Source: an uncultured bacterium (GTDB lineage Bacteria > Hinthialibacterota > Hinthialibacteria > OLB16). From it: a stretch of DNA of 64,000 nt. Made by a program: the position numbers and the translations under genes. The notes beneath the pieces were generated by a model. It worked only from the letters and a program-made list of their open reading frames with translations. It was not told the DNA's origin and did not search any database. Where the stretch lies: assembly GCA_964422415.1 (NCBI GenBank), contig CAYRBI010000003.1:10607-74606 (forward strand), given 5' to 3'. Positions 7,975 to 37,307 of this stretch are shown in pieces (within the stretch, counting starts at the first letter, position 1; each line of letters starts with the position of its first letter).

Positions 7975-10359
7975 ATGTCCAAGTCCAATGTATTTCTTCC
8001 GGTTGTAGCCTGTCTCACCATCGTCATCACATGTGTGGTATTCCCATCCGGGATGGCAGCCCAATCCCAGACACCCCCTGCCGAAACCCTGGCCGGGATT
8101 GGCGCACGGTTATCACGGGAATCGACAGAAGCCTACGCCCAATGCCCATTCTCAGTCCTGTCCAAGGACTTCTTCTCGCGTTTCAGCCGGGACCCGGAGG
8201 CGCATGTGGAGACCGGCGAAGTGGAAATCACACCGGAATGGCGGATCGTGACAGTAAATCCTTCCAGTCTACTGGCTGGTCTGATGGCGGAACACTTAGC
8301 GGTCTTTCTGGATCAGCGGATGGGAGTCAAACTCACCATTTCCGCTGAAGATCCGGGAGTTGGCTCTGGAAGGAAACGCATCGTCCTTTCCGAATCCGGA
8401 GGGGGGACTCCCACCGTGCCCGGTTCGTTCACACTGCATGTCCAAGATGACCAGATCGAAATCAGCGGGATGGACCCGGAGGGACTCCGGGATGGAGTGG
8501 TCCGGCTGGTCCATGAGACCGGACTACGGGAGGCTCCTTTTGCCACCAAGGGAGAACAGATCTTCAGCCCACGCATTCCGGTCCGCCTGGGCTCGGTTCC
8601 TCAAATGGGTTCCTACCGGGACCTGGTGTTCATGGGATACAACACAGTCTTCGTGGGCGGCGGAAGTCTCTATGCCCTCTCAACCAGTAATGCCATCCCA
8701 GAACTCGTGGAACGGCGAAACCCGGGAAGCCTCGCAGCCACCCGCTCCGCTGTCACGGAGGCAAAGCGGTATGGCCTCAAGCCATACGCCTTTATCGACA
8801 TCCGCCAGAAGTTTCCCAAAGACCACCCTGTCTTTTTGAATCATCCGGAGATCCGTGGAACCCTGACCTGGAAGGCGGATGGAGAATATGTCCTCTGCAC
8901 CGAGCACCCTCTTGTAAAGCAATACTTAAGCGAGAGTGTGGAAGGATTGTTTCGTGAGGTGCCGGGGCTGGAGGGGATTACACTCATCATCGGAGGCGAG
9001 GGTTTCTACCATTGCTTCATGCGCCCGTATAATGTGGCCAAGGGGCACACCAACTGCCCGCGTTGTGAACCACTCGGCGCGGAAACCGTGGTCTCTAACC
9101 TGTGTAACACCCTCGCGGAAGCAGCACGCCGGGTGAATCCCCAGGCCCTTGTGATTGCTTGGCCGTACTCAGCGGAACATGTTTGGTCGAAAGACAAGGC
9201 CCAAGCTGGTTTCATCGAAAAGCTCAACCCGGGAACCGCCATCTTCACCGAGATTGAGAAGGATGAATATGTTGAGAAACCAGAAGGGGTACGGAAACAC
9301 CTTTGGGATTACAGTATCGACCTGATTGGCCCCGGAGAACGCGCCAAGCAGCAGATCGCGGCCTGCCAGACCCGGGGGATCCCCATCTTCCTCAAGAGCG
9401 AACCAGAGATCAGCTACGAGGCTCCCCGGCTGCCCCACATTCCTTGCATGGACCGCTGGGCCAGCCGCGCCGAGGCATTGGCATCATGTGGCGCGAGTGG
9501 GGCCTGGGTCTTCCCCGCTTTCAAACCCAATTATGGAACCAGCGCCGCCGAGCTCAACCGCTTCTTCTGGTGGAACCCCGTGGAGCCGGAAGATGAGATC
9601 CTGACCCGTCTCGCCCAGCGTATCGCGGGGAAAGCCGCCGGGCCTCATCTGCGGAAGGCCTGGGCGCTTGTGTCCGAGGCCATTCCCTTCTCTCCCGAGC
9701 TGCCCTCTTACTACACCGGCCCCTATTACCTCGGACCGGCCCACCCCATGTGTGCCGACCTGAAGGCCACCTTGCCGGAGGTCTTCTATGGATACTATCT
9801 GTTTATGGCGGAAATGACTGATAGCGAGGGAGTCAAACTGCGTCCCACCTTCGTCACCTCACCAACTGGGAATGTCCCTGTCTTTGGAGGGATGTACCGT
9901 AAGATGGAGGGACTTCTCGGCCAGGCGACGGCTGAACTCGATCAGGCTGAACCCCTGGTCGAACAACGTCACCAGCTCACCTTCCGTGCGGAGTCCTCAC
10001 CTCTTCGCTGGTTCTACCATACCGCCAGAACGGAAGCGAACTTTTATGAGTCCTGCCAACTGCGAGACCGTCTTGCCGCTCTCTCGGATGCGGGTGTGCC
10101 CTCCGGAACCCAAGCCATCGAGGCTGAACAGGCCTGGCGGAGGTGGAAGGATGTGCTGGAGAATGAGCTCGAAAACACGCAAGAAGCTCTTCCAATCATG
10201 GAAGCCGACATGCGGCTGGACTTCTATTTCGGAGGCGATCACACCTTTCCACATGGATCTGATATGCTAAAGGCGAAGCTGGAGATCCTACACAAGGAGG
10301 TTGAGGAGTATCTCCCGGGCATCGCTGGGAAGCTTGGGATTGGAGAGCGGAAAAAATGA
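7975..10359 (+). CDS. large secreted hypothetical protein (possible carbohydrate-active enzyme; not identified)
   Basis: Start moved to the ATG at 7975, which has a GGAGG 9 nt upstream and yields the signal-peptide-like N-terminus MSKSNVFLPVVACLTIVITCVVFPSGMAAQS. The ORF is about 795 aa and shows no recognisable family motif by eye. Its stop overlaps the start of the MntA-like gene. Confidence 0.6.
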   Translation: MSKSNVFLPVVACLTIVITCVVFPSGMAAQSQTPPAETLAGIGARLSRESTEAYAQCPFSVLSKDFFSRFSRDPEAHVETGEVEITPEWRIVTVNPSSLLAGLMAEHLAVFLDQRMGVKLTISAEDPGVGSGRKRIVLSESGGGTPTVPGSFTLHVQDDQIEISGMDPEGLRDGVVRLVHETGLREAPFATKGEQIFSPRIPVRLGSVPQMGSYRDLVFMGYNTVFVGGGSLYALSTSNAIPELVERRNPGSLAATRSAVTEAKRYGLKPYAFIDIRQKFPKDHPVFLNHPEIRGTLTWKADGEYVLCTEHPLVKQYLSESVEGLFREVPGLEGITLIIGGEGFYHCFMRPYNVAKGHTNCPRCEPLGAETVVSNLCNTLAEAARRVNPQALVIAWPYSAEHVWSKDKAQAGFIEKLNPGTAIFTEIEKDEYVEKPEGVRKHLWDYSIDLIGPGERAKQQIAACQTRGIPIFLKSEPEISYEAPRLPHIPCMDRWASRAEALASCGASGAWVFPAFKPNYGTSAAELNRFFWWNPVEPEDEILTRLAQRIAGKAAGPHLRKAWALVSEAIPFSPELPSYYTGPYYLGPAHPMCADLKATLPEVFYGYYLFMAEMTDSEGVKLRPTFVTSPTGNVPVFGGMYRKMEGLLGQATAELDQAEPLVEQRHQLTFRAESSPLRWFYHTARTEANFYESCQLRDRLAALSDAGVPSGTQAIEAEQAWRRWKDVLENELENTQEALPIMEADMRLDFYFGGDHTFPHGSDMLKAKLEILHKEVEEYLPGIAGKLGIGERKK

Positions 10360-32374: not shown

Positions 32375-35300
32375 TCAGGAGATTGACGAAATAGGAGAGC
32401 CGGGCGGTGTGGTAAACAAATCCGCCTGGCGCTCGATAACCACAACGGCTCTTATCCCACGCAGGCTCTTGAGCCGGTCTAGAAGAACTGTGGAGGGGAC
32501 TACCCGTGGCGACCCAAGCCGCGAGATCAGACGCCGCACCCCTGACCGCTTGATGATCCCCGCGCCGTTCTCAAAAACAAGAGGAATTCCTCGTTCTCCA
32601 CCGGAAAACCATCGTAAAAAGAGAGAGAGTTGTTCGAGTACCTCGGCGGTGGAGTCCTCCAAGACCACCTTAATTTGACTCCAAGACTCACTGGCATTCC
32701 CTAACAGCGCGGGTGTTTCGCATTCCCGCAACAGATACTGGGGGAGGCCCTGCCCGGTGTAGGGGCGCGAACGGACTTCACAGAAGAGCGGCCAAGGCTC
32801 TTTGAGGTGCATCCGGTAGCCATCCAGCCGCGCGGCCTCTGGGATTGGATGAGGGAGAAGGCTGAGCACCTTGCCGGATTCATCCACCACCCGGTAGACA
32901 GTCTCTTGGTTGAAAAGAAGGAAGGTCACCCAAGGTGATTGGGACACACCACCCGGTTGCGGTTCTCCCGCGGTAGCGAACACATCCACCTCATGGACCC
33001 AGCCCATTTGAAGCCAATCCGGCTGCCTGGCAAGACCCCCCTCAGCAAACCATTCCTGGGGAAACCATTCCCGGAAAGGCTCAAGTGGATTCTGGATGAT
33101 TCCCAGGCGCAACAGGCTGAGTTCGAGGTGTTCCTCGTGATGCAGGCTTAAACTATCCGGACCAACAATGGCGGCCGTTGTTGAATGGGCTTGCCCGGGG
33201 CGGACAGGGAAGAGGGTTTGCTGCGCGGCCCCACCGCCCTGAGCACGCAAGGAGAGGTGCCGGGCGCGGGCCTCGGTAAGGAGTGCTCCGGTGTTATGGC
33301 CGAAAGGCTCGAAAACACCCAGACGGATCAGTTGTGAAAGGAGGTTCCAACTCAGCCGGTGTTCAGGCCAGGACTTGAGCCATTCCTCCCACGAGAGATC
33401 CGGTACCGTTGGGGGCGGCTGGAATAGATCCCGTAAACCACCCCCCTGCAAAGAGCTGGGATAGGATGCCTCCAGGTCCATGGAAATCTGCGGTCCCACC
33501 CCAAGGATATTCTGTGTCCCCAAACGAAGCTGCCCTGTAGATGGTGAGAAATCATAACGCCCACCCGGAACCGCGCGAGGCGGGTCGAGCCGCGTGCCGC
33601 GCGCTCTCAGCAGGCTGTAGAGTTCACGGCGATCCTCGGTTTCACCGGGATAGAGGTAAGACAGGATCGCAGTCATTGCCGCGGGATCCCGCGCAAAGGC
33701 ATCGGCCATGGCCAGCAGCTGCTCAGCCTTCCTTAAAAACTCAGGACGGGATGGAAGGGGGTTGGGATTACCCAGGAACTGGACCACCGTTTCCCTTGTG
33801 TTCCGGTCCCACACATGTTGATCCCGGCTGGAGACCGGGTCCGGTTGCGGCCCCCCCTCTTCCAGGGAGAGCCACAGATCCATCTCCTCCGCTGTCAGGC
33901 GAAGAGCAGCGGTTCCCACCTGGTGGATCTGCTCCCGGTAGAGGAGCCAACCTCCCGTTCCTTGAGTGAACCGTTCCAAAGCTGCGCCAACATCCCCACG
34001 GATCCTGGCATCGAGGCCACTCTCATCAGCGGATCTGGTCCAATCCTCCCACCAGGGAGGCACTCCTCCTTCGGAGCGGAGAGGGTGTTCTCTTTGGACT
34101 GCGATCAGACGCAGATTCTCCCGCTGGGTCCAGAAGGACCAATGCCAGGCTAAAGCGAGCAGGTCCGCCAGCTCACCAATGAATGTGGGCATGGCCGCAC
34201 AGATCCACCTCCAGAGGAGCGGACGGTAACCAGTGGAACCGGGAATGGTCAACAGGCGCAGGAGCGATGCTGAAAGGCCGAGAACCTCGATCTTGCCAGT
34301 GTCATCCGCATACCCCTGATCCCGGAAGACCTCGCCGCGATGCTTCTCGATCCAGGTGGTAATCGATTCACGGGATTCTTCGCGGCGGGGCAGGACCGGG
34401 ACAGTGTCCCGGTAAAACGGCGCGCAGGAGAGGGTCTGAGTATTCGATGCCAAGAGCCGCAGAACCAAGGTTCCCACGGTCAGGGCATCGATGGGGTCTG
34501 TGTCCAATTCTGGATACCCGGTTTTCGCGGGCGCGAACACCTGTTCGAGGTTGACCGCAGAGACAATCAGCGAGGCCGGAGCATCACTGGAGGTGGAGCC
34601 TCCCCCTTGATCCAGGAAAGATGGGAGTGGAGGAAGCTTATCCGGGGGATCACCGGGAAATTCCAGATCCTCCCAGTGGGCAAGCAAACGGTAGCCAGCA
34701 TGGACAAGATCCTCATGGTCATCTGGGGCGGGAGCCGCGAAGCCACATCTTCCTTTCCCCAACAGAGCATTGAGAGACGCGAGTACCTCCTGCTCCCATT
34801 GGTGAGGGCAATCCACCTCGACTGGAGCATGAAGAGAGTCTTGAACTCCAGGATGGAAGGAGATGCCTTCATGGTAGGGATCGACACGGGTCAGGCCGAG
34901 GAGATGCGCGAAGAGCGAGGAGGTGGTCCATTCAGCTGTAGGCCGGAGTGTCCCCGGTGGCAGCCCCAGCCGCTTACGAACATCCCACAGGAGAAGCCAC
35001 ACAGTGGGCCAGCGGGTCTGTTTGAGGTATTGGAATTCTTCGACCAGCCGCTCCTTGACCCCTTCCCGGCGGATATGACCGGTGGCGATGGCGGTTTCCT
35101 GACCTAGGGTCCAAAAGAAGGAGGCGGCATCGGTACCCCGTGGAACCGGGTAGACCGGGAAGGTCAAACCACTGTGTTGATAGGGATCGAAGGGTTTGGC
35201 GGTCAGCTTCTCGACACCACGGAAGGCAGGAGTAAGCCCTTGCAGGAGCCTTACCACCCGCTCCGCATGGGGAATACGCCCTGGCAGATCTCTTGAACTG

Positions 35301-36163
35301 GTGACATTTCCCTGCCCCGTAAGCCGTGCGGCACATCCCCAGAAACGGTCATGCTGTGTCCGGTAGGCGGCTTGTACACACGCGAGCGGCGGAATTGGAA
35401 GAGGCGACCGGGAGGGAGAGGTTGTGGCGGTTTCTATAATCCCACCCGTTCGTGAATCAAAACAACAGAGACCTACTTGATCATGTGGCCACTGTTCCAG
35501 AAATGTGGACATCCAAGCAAAGCGTTCTCTGTCTGCACGGTTGGTAGGAATCCGTTGAAGAGCTGATCCAGCCAATCCCGCCACCAGGAAAACTCCCTCA
35601 CAGAAATTCAAAAGAACCTCGGGATGAACACCCTTTTCCGCCGATAGATCCCAGGCTTGTTTGATCTTGAGCAGATTCCGGAAGCCGGCATGGTTGACCG
35701 CAAGCAGGGCGGCCCGCTCACAAGCACAAGCTGGAGTACCATTAGCAATCCGTTGAATAACTCTTTGTTCTTTTGGCACCATGGATTCCCGCCTTCGCGG
35801 GAATGACGATTTCCGAAGAATTTCGCTTATTCTGTCATTCCCGCGAAGGCGGGAATCCATGGTCACGTTCTCTTTCAACAGGCTGTTGGGGGACAGTAAG
35901 AGATCGAAGACATCGGGACTCCGGATCTCTGCTAGGCCTGAAGGGGGTGTAATGAGAACTGTCATCCCGGCCAGACCCAGCATGTGGTTTCTGGCGCAGG
36001 CCTCCAGGAAGCTTGGTCCTCCCTGGAGGGTACCCGTGTCCACCAACGCGGCTACACGGTAGCCCACCTCGGCGGCCGCCTGGACCAGCAGGTTGGGTGG
36101 CACAATCCCCCCCATACGGTCATGGGAGGACTGTAACAGGATAAGGGGCCCATGGTTTGGCAT
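32375..36163 (-). CDS. DNA polymerase III alpha (DnaE)-like protein with degenerate PHP and palm catalytic motifs (putative pseudo-polymerase)
   Basis: PHP-like N-terminus: [46 protein letters not shown] against the DnaE sequence [54 protein letters not shown] aligns with LLATNNTGYQNL. The palm block is [24 protein letters not shown] against [22 protein letters not shown]. The PDFDxDF site reads HAPVEVDCP, and FDFLGL reads IEVLGL. There are no stops across 3.8 kb. The start is set at the internal ATG at 36163, which has AAGGA 10 nt upstream. Confidence 0.55.
   Translation of the reverse strand: [1262 protein letters not shown]
35778..35863. mobile_element. 86-bp MITE-like palindromic element inserted in-frame in the DnaE-like ORF
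   Basis: accatggattcccgccttcgcgggaatgacgatttcc ... gtcattcccgcgaaggcgggaatccatggt. The 30-bp inverted arms are near-identical to the copy at 62052-62137. It translates (minus strand) to ...[28 protein letters not shown]... inside the PHP-like region. Confidence 0.75.
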
Positions 36164-36317
36164 ACACGGGAATCCTTGGGAAAAGGGAGCAAAATGACAA
36201 GACACCCCCATTCCCATATACTGCTCGAGCCGGTATAGTCACTTTCAACACCGGGCCCATGAGGATGCAGGATTTCCCCATGCGGCTCAAGACAGGCCGA
36301 TTTCCCCGGAGTAAAAA

Positions 36318-37307
36318 ATGGCAACCAAACGTACCAAAGACCAGAAAGGCACCTGGGTCACCTACCGTCCCGATATCAAGGTAATGGACTGCACGGTCCG
36401 GGATGGTGGCCTGATTAACAACCACAACTTCGAGGACTCTTTTGTCCGCGCGGTCTACCAAACATGTGTCGCCGCGGGTATCGACTACATGGAAATCGGC
36501 TACAAAGGAGCCCAGCGCCTCTACTCCCCCACCGAGCATGGCAAGTGGAAGCATTGCAGCGAAGACGACCTGCGCCGCATCATGGATGACAATCCGGCCA
36601 ATCTGAAAATTTCAGCCATGGCCGACGCGGACCGGTGTGATTACCACGTGGATATTCTCCCCAAAAAGGAGAGCGTCCTCGATATGATCCGCGTGGCCTG
36701 CTACATCAATCAGATCCCCACCGCGATCGACATGGTCAAAGATGCCACCGATAAGGGGTATGAAACCACAGTCAACATCATGGCGGTCTCGACAGTCCAT
36801 GAAAAAGACCTGCTGGAAGCCCTCGAGGTCCTGGCCGAAACCCCCGTCGGCTCGGTGTACATTGTGGACAGCAACGGCGCCCTTTATTCAGAGGAAATCC
36901 AGGATCTCACACGTCAATTCCGCCGGGCCTTGAATGGGACGGATAAACTAGTGGGGATCCACGCCCACAACAATCAACAATTAGCCTACGCCAACACCAT
37001 CGAGGCCATTGTTTGTGGGGCGAGTATGCTCGATGCAACCATCAACGGTATGGGACGTGGCGCGGGGAACTGTCCGCTCGAACTGCTCATCGGATTCCTG
37101 CACAATCCGAAATTTAAGCTGCGTCCCATCTTGGAGTGCATTCAAAACGTATTTCTTCCCATGCGGGACAAGATGGAGTGGGGGTATCAGCTGGCCTATA
37201 TGGTCACTGGCCAGCTCAACCAACACCCACGCTATGCCATTAAGGTACGTGAGAGTTCAACCCCGGATGATATTGTCGGTTTTTACGACCAAATGACAAA
37301 CGATTAA
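36318..37307 (+). CDS. HMGL-like (pyruvate carboxyltransferase domain) aldolase, 4-hydroxy-2-oxovalerate aldolase-like
   Basis: DCTVRDGGL resembles the DCTLRDGxQ metal-site motif. The C-terminal GIHAHNNQQLAYANTIEAIVCGASMLDATINGMGRGAGNCPLE matches the HMGL-like signature. Confidence 0.7.
   Translation: MATKRTKDQKGTWVTYRPDIKVMDCTVRDGGLINNHNFEDSFVRAVYQTCVAAGIDYMEIGYKGAQRLYSPTEHGKWKHCSEDDLRRIMDDNPANLKISAMADADRCDYHVDILPKKESVLDMIRVACYINQIPTAIDMVKDATDKGYETTVNIMAVSTVHEKDLLEALEVLAETPVGSVYIVDSNGALYSEEIQDLTRQFRRALNGTDKLVGIHAHNNQQLAYANTIEAIVCGASMLDATINGMGRGAGNCPLELLIGFLHNPKFKLRPILECIQNVFLPMRDKMEWGYQLAYMVTGQLNQHPRYAIKVRESSTPDDIVGFYDQMTND

Follow-up and report, generated by a model that had tools for sequence, protein, structure and literature searches.

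A full-length DnaE homologue with replaced catalytic residues in one family of Candidatus Hinthialibacterota, a putative non-catalytic scaffold or regulator

A gene encoding a full-length, strongly diverged homologue of the alpha subunit of DNA polymerase III (PolIII alpha, DnaE) was identified on the minus strand of a 64,000-nucleotide stretch of DNA (hereafter, the window) from an uncultured bacterium of the phylum Candidatus (Ca.) Hinthialibacterota (assembly GCA_964422415.1, contig CAYRBI010000003.1, positions 10,607 to 74,606). As judged from its residues, polymerase and PHP-exonuclease activities of the encoded protein are very unlikely, because the catalytic residues, the PHP metal ligands, the GS motif and the fingers motifs are replaced. 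With moderate confidence, the gene is interpreted here as a lineage-specific, fast-evolving and selectively kept PolIII alpha paralogue, whose product would bind clamp and DNA as a non-catalytic scaffold or regulator.

The minus-strand frame 32375..36217 is free of stops and comprises 1280 codons, counted from the first ATG at 36217. The open reading frame (ORF) of 1262 amino acids (aa) described in the initial annotation corresponds to a start at the second ATG (MPNHGPL..., 36163), which is also the start in seven database homologues and in the database copy of the window protein; in an alignment of eight, all homologues start at or after MP..GPL. On these grounds, 32375..36163 is the preferred extent of the gene. 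The GC content around the gene is 58–59%, close to the 60% initially stated. From the base composition, approximately 0.035 stops per codon are expected, and by our own arithmetic, the chance of an open frame of 1280 codons is in the order of 1e-20, so that, on this estimate, the frame is not open by chance. The gene model is as follows (all coordinates refer to the window):

32375..36163, minus strand: DnaE-like pseudo-polymerase gene (P0002), 1262 aa, open reading frame with the start MPNHG
32375-32377, minus strand: stop codon of the DnaE-like gene
36164..36217, minus strand: in-frame upstream extension of 18 codons with an earlier ATG, probably untranslated, as the homologues lack conservation there

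The full-length similarity to DnaE, initially recognized by eye, was found to be weak for the single sequence, but solid for the family profile. Searching Pfam with the window protein alone, PHP was matched with E=1.3e-3 (19.5 bits, cut-off 26.4) and DNA_pol3_alpha with E=0.2, while the best NCBIfam match, TIGR00594, reached E=5e-6 (24.8 bits, cut-off 434), and the DnaE2 model NF004225 reached 14.6 bits (cut-off 939). For all NCBIfam DnaE, DnaE2 and PolC equivalogs, the protein remained below the cut-offs (11–25 bits vs. 434–1806), and the similarity to DnaE1 of Mycobacterium tuberculosis was likewise low (E=4e-3). The profile of eight family members, however, matched M. tuberculosis DnaE1 (7pu7) with E=1e-15 in HMMER, the colinear stretches representing PHP and palm as well as the helix-hairpin-helix (HhH)/beta-binding domain. 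Pfam PHP was matched by all eight family members (best E=1.5e-12), and DNA_pol3_alpha by seven of them. Comparison of the family with 31 canonical DnaEs using hhalign aligned residues 2–1209 with residues 1–1201 (E=3e-77); the profile-level similarity is thus significant and spans the full length.

Furthermore, the window protein was folded with AlphaFold2 as two overlapping halves (N-half, residues 1–700; C-half, residues 560–1262), each of which was searched with Foldseek. The N-half model reached a mean predicted local distance difference test (pLDDT) value of 68.6, with values between 80 and 90 in the PHP and palm cores; its top match was 7pu7 (E=3.7e-20), followed by the E. coli and Taq DnaE structures. 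For the C-half model (pLDDT 81.5, predicted template modelling score 0.81), approximately 700 columns were aligned to full-length Taq and M. tuberculosis PolIII alpha (E=1e-13), and secondary matches comprised OB folds such as SSB and AspRS. Because the profile, hhalign and both model halves match DnaE colinearly, the DnaE domain order (PHP, palm, thumb, fingers, HhH, OB, C-terminal domain) is, on the evidence of alignments and models, preserved in the window protein, and the profile, hhalign and Foldseek results together place it in the C-family (PolIII alpha/DnaE) superfamily. The following domains were delimited:

35174..36163, minus strand: degenerate PHP domain, aa 1-330 (Pfam PHP in 8 of 8 members; metal-ligand table; pLDDT 80-90; Foldseek match to DnaE PHP)
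34364..35173, minus strand: palm and thumb, aa 331-600 (HMMER, hhalign, Foldseek)
33524..34363, minus strand: fingers, aa 601-880 (motif skeletons kept, basic and catalytic residues lost; C-half model)
33164..33523, minus strand: HhH/beta-binding domain, aa 881-1000 (HMMER domain 3 vs. 7pu7 residues 852-1002; Pfam HHH_6 in two members)
32714..33046, minus strand: OB-fold region, approximately aa 1040-1150 (all-beta in the model; Foldseek match to Taq PolIII alpha)
32378..32713, minus strand: C-terminal domain, aa 1151-1262, ending in QADLF (model)

To compare the catalytic sites, 22 functional positions were mapped through the canonical DnaE of the same genome (P0011; D445/D447/D598). The residue equivalences rest on three sequence or profile aligners and on the secondary structure of the model; for the catalytic aspartates, the E. 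coli DnaE numbering D401, D403 and D555 is assumed. In active PHP domains, metal is bound by nine residues (HxH, D, H, E, H, C, DxH), none of which is retained in the window protein. In accordance with the initial reading of the HVHSxYS position as LLQSSHD, HLHLHSEYS of the canonical DnaE pairs with -ILLQSSHD. Three segments of the palm and fingers concern the polymerase motifs:

34805..34825, minus strand: PVEVDCP, aa 447-453, strand homologous to PDxDxDF (HMMER, hhalign, MAFFT; model)
34448..34468, minus strand: LVLRLLA, aa 566-572, strand homologous to (K)MDFLGL (hhalign, MAFFT; beta-strand 566-572 in the model)
34274..34291, minus strand: IEVLGL, aa 625-630, placed by hhalign on the fingers segment 'TYELLQ' after PLDD

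PPDIDTDF was aligned to HAPVEVDC by HMMER, hhalign and MAFFT alike, which agrees with the initial assignment of PDFDxDF to HAPVEVDCP. D401 is thereby replaced by P447 and D403 by E449, whereas D405 corresponds to D451, and the model contains a beta-strand at 448-452. The second palm motif had to be re-aligned: FDFLGL, previously assigned to IEVLGL, was placed by hhalign and MAFFT on LVLRLL (566-571), which forms a beta-strand in the model, so that D555 corresponds to R569 (R/N/V/E/Q among relatives). The 401 position varies across the family (P/P/W/R/S/E/S/V). Furthermore, GRGS is replaced by A-E-W, RRAMGKK by WLSLEE and FNKSH by NPLPS, with the palm and fingers motif skeletons still being recognizable. 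Neither the three aspartates nor the GS motif nor the dNTP-binding fingers motifs (YRPGP, RRAMGKK, FNKSH) of a functional C-family polymerase were thus found, and intact catalytic aspartates were restored by none of the alignments. The proposed replacement of all three catalytic aspartates accordingly holds (P447/E449/R569), but the term 'ablated' is not absolute, since the exchange of D403 for Glu is conservative and the 405 position remains acidic. Overall, the observation stands, and apart from the one re-aligned motif, it had been interpreted in an essentially correct way.

The check for a separate canonical dnaE, suggested in the initial annotation, revealed one elsewhere in the genome. 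With PF07733 as query, contig C4 was the one place in the 6.3-Mb assembly with a strong match (327 bits), and besides it only the window gene matched, weakly; no further polymerase bearing PF07733, such as DnaE2, was found by this search. The C4 gene (C4:33254..36883) encodes 1210 aa, in which HLHLHSEYS, PPDIDTDF, KMDFLGL, GRGS, YRPGP, RRAMGKK and FNKSH are all intact. Compared with the DnaE of related genomes, its product shows identities of 89/77/75/69% (89% referring to a genome of the same genus), and the gene is therefore native to the organism and not a contamination. Replication would be carried by this canonical dnaE.

The DnaE-like gene was detected in all seven genomes of one Ca. Hinthialibacterota family (f1; three genera), and in none of the 28 other genomes of the phylum (five other families; E<=1e-20). 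Named records with relatives include Ca. Hinthialibacteria OLB16 and metagenome-assembled genomes deposited as 'Ca. Omnitrophota'. In a library of 1.8 billion representatives, searched with the trimmed family alignment as profile, the family comprised only seven full-length clusters at 50% identity plus fragments, and the scores fell from at least 1181 to 142 bits. The full-length orthologues are stop-free, with intact ORFs of 1,170–1,260 aa across the three genera. Identities of the DnaE-like protein to the related genomes amount to 68/~40/~43/~35%, compared to the 89/77/75/69% of DnaE in the same genomes. The ratio of non-synonymous to synonymous substitution rates (dN/dS) was 0.12–0.135 for the DnaE-like gene and 0.035–0.05 for dnaE and an aldolase-like neighbour, these values being approximate at a dS of ~1.5–2.0, near saturation. 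The gene is relaxed, yet clearly under purifying selection. The earlier argument for selection, which had been deduced from the open frame, is hence corroborated by dN/dS and by the orthologues in all seven family genomes; a pseudogene would be at odds with the intact frame, these dN/dS values and the intact orthologues in three genera.

Which parts of the protein are conserved gives an indication of its possible role. The most conserved segment was found to be palm residues 331-445, with a mean pairwise identity of 0.65 vs. 0.34–0.52 elsewhere in the protein; invariant palm residues of the family include RGxD, GH, W393-D394 and R407. In the HhH domain, the hairpin GVGPQI is located at 888-893, with G888, G890 and P891 being invariant. 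In addition, two candidate clamp-binding motifs were recognized:

33209..33223, minus strand: QQTLF, aa 981-985, candidate internal beta-clamp-binding motif (11-member alignment)
32414..32428, minus strand: QADLF, aa 1246-1250, terminal QxxLF (C-terminal Q-x-x-[LIM]-F in 10 of 11 members)

The internal motif follows the pattern Q-x-T-[LF]-F, in which Q, T and F are invariant in all 11 family members, and is situated in a loop of low pLDDT. Its counterpart in the alignments is GQFDLF in M. tuberculosis DnaE1 and GQVSLF in the canonical DnaE of the same genome, a position which we take to be the internal clamp-binding motif of DnaE. Proteins binding the beta clamp typically carry a pentapeptide of the QL[SD]LF type within a flexible segment. 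A complex prediction for the organism's own DnaN and the C-terminal 323 aa of the window protein returned a score of 0.00, i.e., no answer, and speaks neither for nor against clamp binding.

A role as scaffold or regulator is proposed because the HhH domain, the OB fold, the clamp motifs and the palm surface are what stays conserved. According to this proposal, the replacement of the metal-binding carboxylates and histidines, of the GS motif and of the basic fingers residues holding the dNTP would preclude polymerisation as well as PHP exonuclease activity. The modules for tethering to DNA and clamp, namely the HhH hairpin, the OB fold, the internal QQTLF and the terminal QxxLF, would be retained, and the conserved N-terminal palm may represent a newly constrained surface. 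The protein would then bind clamp and DNA, and could serve the replisome or a repair process as a non-catalytic scaffold or regulator, possibly in a manner similar to that of ImuB for the Y family. Several observations weigh against this proposal. The support for clamp binding consists of short motifs, catalytic inactivity is deduced from residues, and the catalytic strand still bears two carboxylates, E449 and D451, which makes a residual or altered metal site conceivable. Compared with dnaE, evolution of the gene is about three times faster, i.e., constraint is relaxed, and the dN/dS values are subject to the saturation mentioned above. Moreover, a repeat-derived insert of 48 aa could impair the allele in the window, and no conserved operon partner or neighbour from replication or repair was found in the window and five other contexts.

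The two remaining carboxylates lead to the first alternative, namely that of a neo-functionalised enzyme catalysing a non-polymerase reaction (another nucleotidyl transfer or a hydrolysis) by means of E449/D451 and the conserved W/R/H-rich palm residues. The 403 position is Glu in 8 of 11 family members and Asp in P0015, the 405 position is acidic in all 11 members examined, and the strongly conserved palm segment with its invariant residues likewise speaks for this reading. However, 403 is occupied by Gly in P0013 and Gln in P0005, so that E449 is not strictly required; R/N/V/E are found at the equivalent of D555, neither the GS motif nor any of the basic residues that bind the triphosphate is left, and Pfam and NCBIfam give no signal of another enzyme family. 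A new enzymatic function is accordingly regarded as unlikely.

The second alternative is that the family, or at least the window allele with its repeat, represents a functionless relic, i.e., a decaying duplicate heading to loss. Besides the accelerated evolution and the insertion, a broken copy could be taken in its favour: in the OLB16 assembly, the DnaE-like gene is frameshifted (L019, ~8730-8892), this being the sole broken copy. The essential dnaE of the same assembly is frameshifted as well (G032:C41:11784-11906), and the frameshifts are therefore probably sequencing or assembly errors rather than signs of a pseudogene. The intact ORFs in three genera despite identities down to ~35%, a dN/dS of 0.12–0.13 and not ~1, and the in-frame, stop-free nature of the insertion in a loop varying across the family make decay quite improbable. 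Finally, the window protein could be the actual DNA polymerase or a second active one, with the motif alignment being wrong. This would be suggested by the weak single-sequence similarity and the risk of a misleading alignment by eye, but is extremely improbable given that three independent aligners agree on the palm motifs, the model puts the aligned segments on the expected beta-strands, a canonical dnaE with all motifs is present, and the NCBIfam DnaE scores lie far below the cut-offs.

Considering known systems, inactivated scaffold paralogues have been described for the Y family (ImuB), and members with an inactivated polymerase site occur in the X family. An inactivated polymerase paralogue is as such a known phenomenon. 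For the C family, PHP inactivation is frequent according to the two most recent systematic surveys of bacterial polymerases (PMC3919608; PMC12926913), which used complete reference genomes, a set without the candidate phyla concerned here. An inactivated C-family polymerase site was described neither in the searched passages of these surveys nor in the results of a further full-text search. With DnaE1/PolIII alpha (M. tuberculosis 7pu7, E. coli 2hnh/5fkv, Taq 2hpi/4iqj), the window protein shares the domain order, the fold and the motif skeletons as well as the HhH hairpin, the OB fold and, in the homologous place, an internal QxxLF, but lacks the nine PHP ligands, D401/D555, GRGS, RRAMGKK and FNKSH, has Glu in place of D403, and coexists with a true DnaE1 in the same genome. 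DnaE2 is similar in that it is a DnaE paralogue which is non-essential and whose PHP domain is usually inactivated (PMC12926913); however, its polymerase site is intact, and it is shorter (~1,050 aa). ImuB (PMC12926913, PMC10421592) provides an analogy only, having a polymerase fold without catalytic residues, a retained beta-clamp motif and an adaptor role; unlike the window protein, it has a Y-family fold unrelated to the C family, and is encoded together with imuA and dnaE2, neither of which is adjacent to the window gene.

If the proposed role is true, the protein would represent a C-family counterpart of ImuB and of inactivated B-family polymerase modules, and thus a class of polymerase manager or scaffold not described before. 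With its clamp motifs intact, a conserved dead PolIII alpha would be an added player in the clamp traffic at the replication fork. It would also constitute a natural separation-of-function DnaE, featuring the binding modules without catalysis, for studies of replisome architecture.

The family is not the sole group of this kind. The next-best library matches were proteins of ~1,000-1,130 aa without PDxDxD, DFLG, RPGP and FNKSH, most of which keep the PHP HxH. On NCBIfam DnaE models, this second polymerase-dead group scored 240–480 bits vs. cut-offs of at least 1000. It comprises P0024-P0037 and the P0031 cluster (L047 = G035:C70, L049, L050), with Ca. Sumerlaeota/BRC1 as named sources, and its phylum is apparently Ca. 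Sumerlaeota, where an intact copy of full length occurs in at least 37 out of 75 species genomes. In G035, the copy coexists with a canonical DnaE. Database names of its members are 'PHP domain-containing protein' and 'DNA polymerase III subunit alpha', the latter calling for caution in annotation. Regarding the earlier remark that an inactive C-family scaffold would be unusual and is not known from a described family, no such description was found in the literature searched, but the gene does not stand alone, since it has relatives in a small family and another phylum contains a second dead group of larger size.

Like the window's family, the Sumerlaeota-type proteins are full-length DnaE homologues without the four polymerase motifs, and are placed on the non-canonical side of the tree. 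In contrast to it, most of them keep the PHP HxH, some with eight of nine ligands; they are shorter (~1,040-1,100 aa), with much of the fingers unaligned to DnaE, and much closer to canonical DnaE, as evident from the hhalign scores (dead group vs. canonical 1284; window family vs. canonical 423; window family vs. dead group 487). In an unrooted tree of the N-terminal 470 columns, the canonical DnaEs were split off by one fully supported branch, and the Sumerlaeota-type group and the window's family formed separate clades of 23 and 11 sequences, respectively, the latter on a very long stem. Concerning a common origin of the two dead groups, the tree amounts in effect to a three-way split whose branches are long, and the hhalign score only slightly favours the dead group as the closer relative. 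Tentatively, and with less confidence than for the window's family itself, it is conceivable that at least two phyla, Hinthialibacterota (one family) and apparently Sumerlaeota (approximately half of the sampled species), keep dead PolIII alpha paralogues which dock on the beta clamp and DNA as non-catalytic subunits of the replisome or of repair.

In both contexts inspected, the second-group gene adjoins rsmB and a gene for a membrane protein of ~730 aa. A solitary and highly divergent DnaE-like protein without any PHP or polymerase motifs (P0023, 1134 aa) was encountered on a 97-kb contig of a Joint Genome Institute metagenome; it represents the closest non-family neighbour of the window's family in the profile search as well as in the tree, and may mark a wider distribution of this family.

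The insertion in the window allele is the following element:

35742..35885, minus strand: 144-bp palindromic repeat resembling a miniature inverted-repeat transposable element, in frame and without stop, absent in all homologues

It adds 48 aa (approximately aa 93-141) to a PHP loop which is already variable in the family, and the insert is disordered in the model (pLDDT ~35). Approximately 60–70 full-length copies of the repeat and more than 100 copies of its core hairpin are present in the genome, and besides the window, the repeat was noted at about 90 places (e.g., G000:C3:365-501 and C3:101407-101549), the core being GGATTCCCGCCTTCGCGGGAATGAC ... GTCATTCCCGCGAAGGCGGGAATCC. Its frames encode MDSRLRGND...SFPRRRES in one and VIPAKAGIH in another. 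In contigs of two sludge-metagenome runs, the gene continues into the element; the downstream junction between repeat and gene was bridged, whereas the upstream junction was bridged by none, and the element was skipped by none. Several other copies are located inside long open frames (1057, 1180, 704, 1081 and 834 aa), and P0010 (1040 aa, Wzy_C domain) is encoded by one such long open frame with a repeat copy.

The neighbours of the DnaE-like gene encode an ABC transporter, a CN-hydrolase, a DUF134 protein, a NifX-like protein, an aldolase-like protein, an esterase and an MBOAT protein. In agreement with the initial annotation, neither imuA/imuB nor replication genes are adjacent in the window, and the association with imuA/imuB or Y-family partners typical of DnaE2/ImuC is thus not seen there; a genome-wide search for imuA/imuB was not made. 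Alignment of the intergenic region and a scan for promoters and terminators yielded no interpretable motif such as an SOS box, and Rfam gave no match in the window. No RNA sequencing runs with the DnaE-like gene were listed, the only runs being the two sludge-metagenome DNA runs from one study, which probably represent the source sample.

Two candidates for a functional partner were considered and rejected. The first is the gene located divergently from the DnaE-like gene:

36318..37307, plus strand: aldolase-like gene (HMGL/4-hydroxy-2-oxovalerate aldolase-like)

It is adjacent in the window and in L012, L015, L017 and L013, but not in L011, L018, L019 and L020, and its orthologues are 80–91% identical where the DnaE-like protein is 40–68% identical; the adjacency in five out of nine contexts looks like retained synteny. 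The second candidate, a DnaN-like protein of 633 aa regarded as a dedicated clamp, is multi-copy and patchy, and absent in four of the seven genomes with the DnaE-like gene. In the phylum, it was found in G033 (twice), G031 and G028, and it is not co-distributed with the DnaE-like gene. Its N-terminal ~350 aa are beta-clamp-like (TIGR00663, E~1e-6; 26% identity to the organism's own DnaN), followed by an extension of ~280 aa of no assigned kind. Three copies, 78–89% identical to each other, were detected on short contigs (G000:C308:78-1976, L039; C245:3605-5497; C255:2-1021, L038), and the gene is possibly carried by a mobile element.

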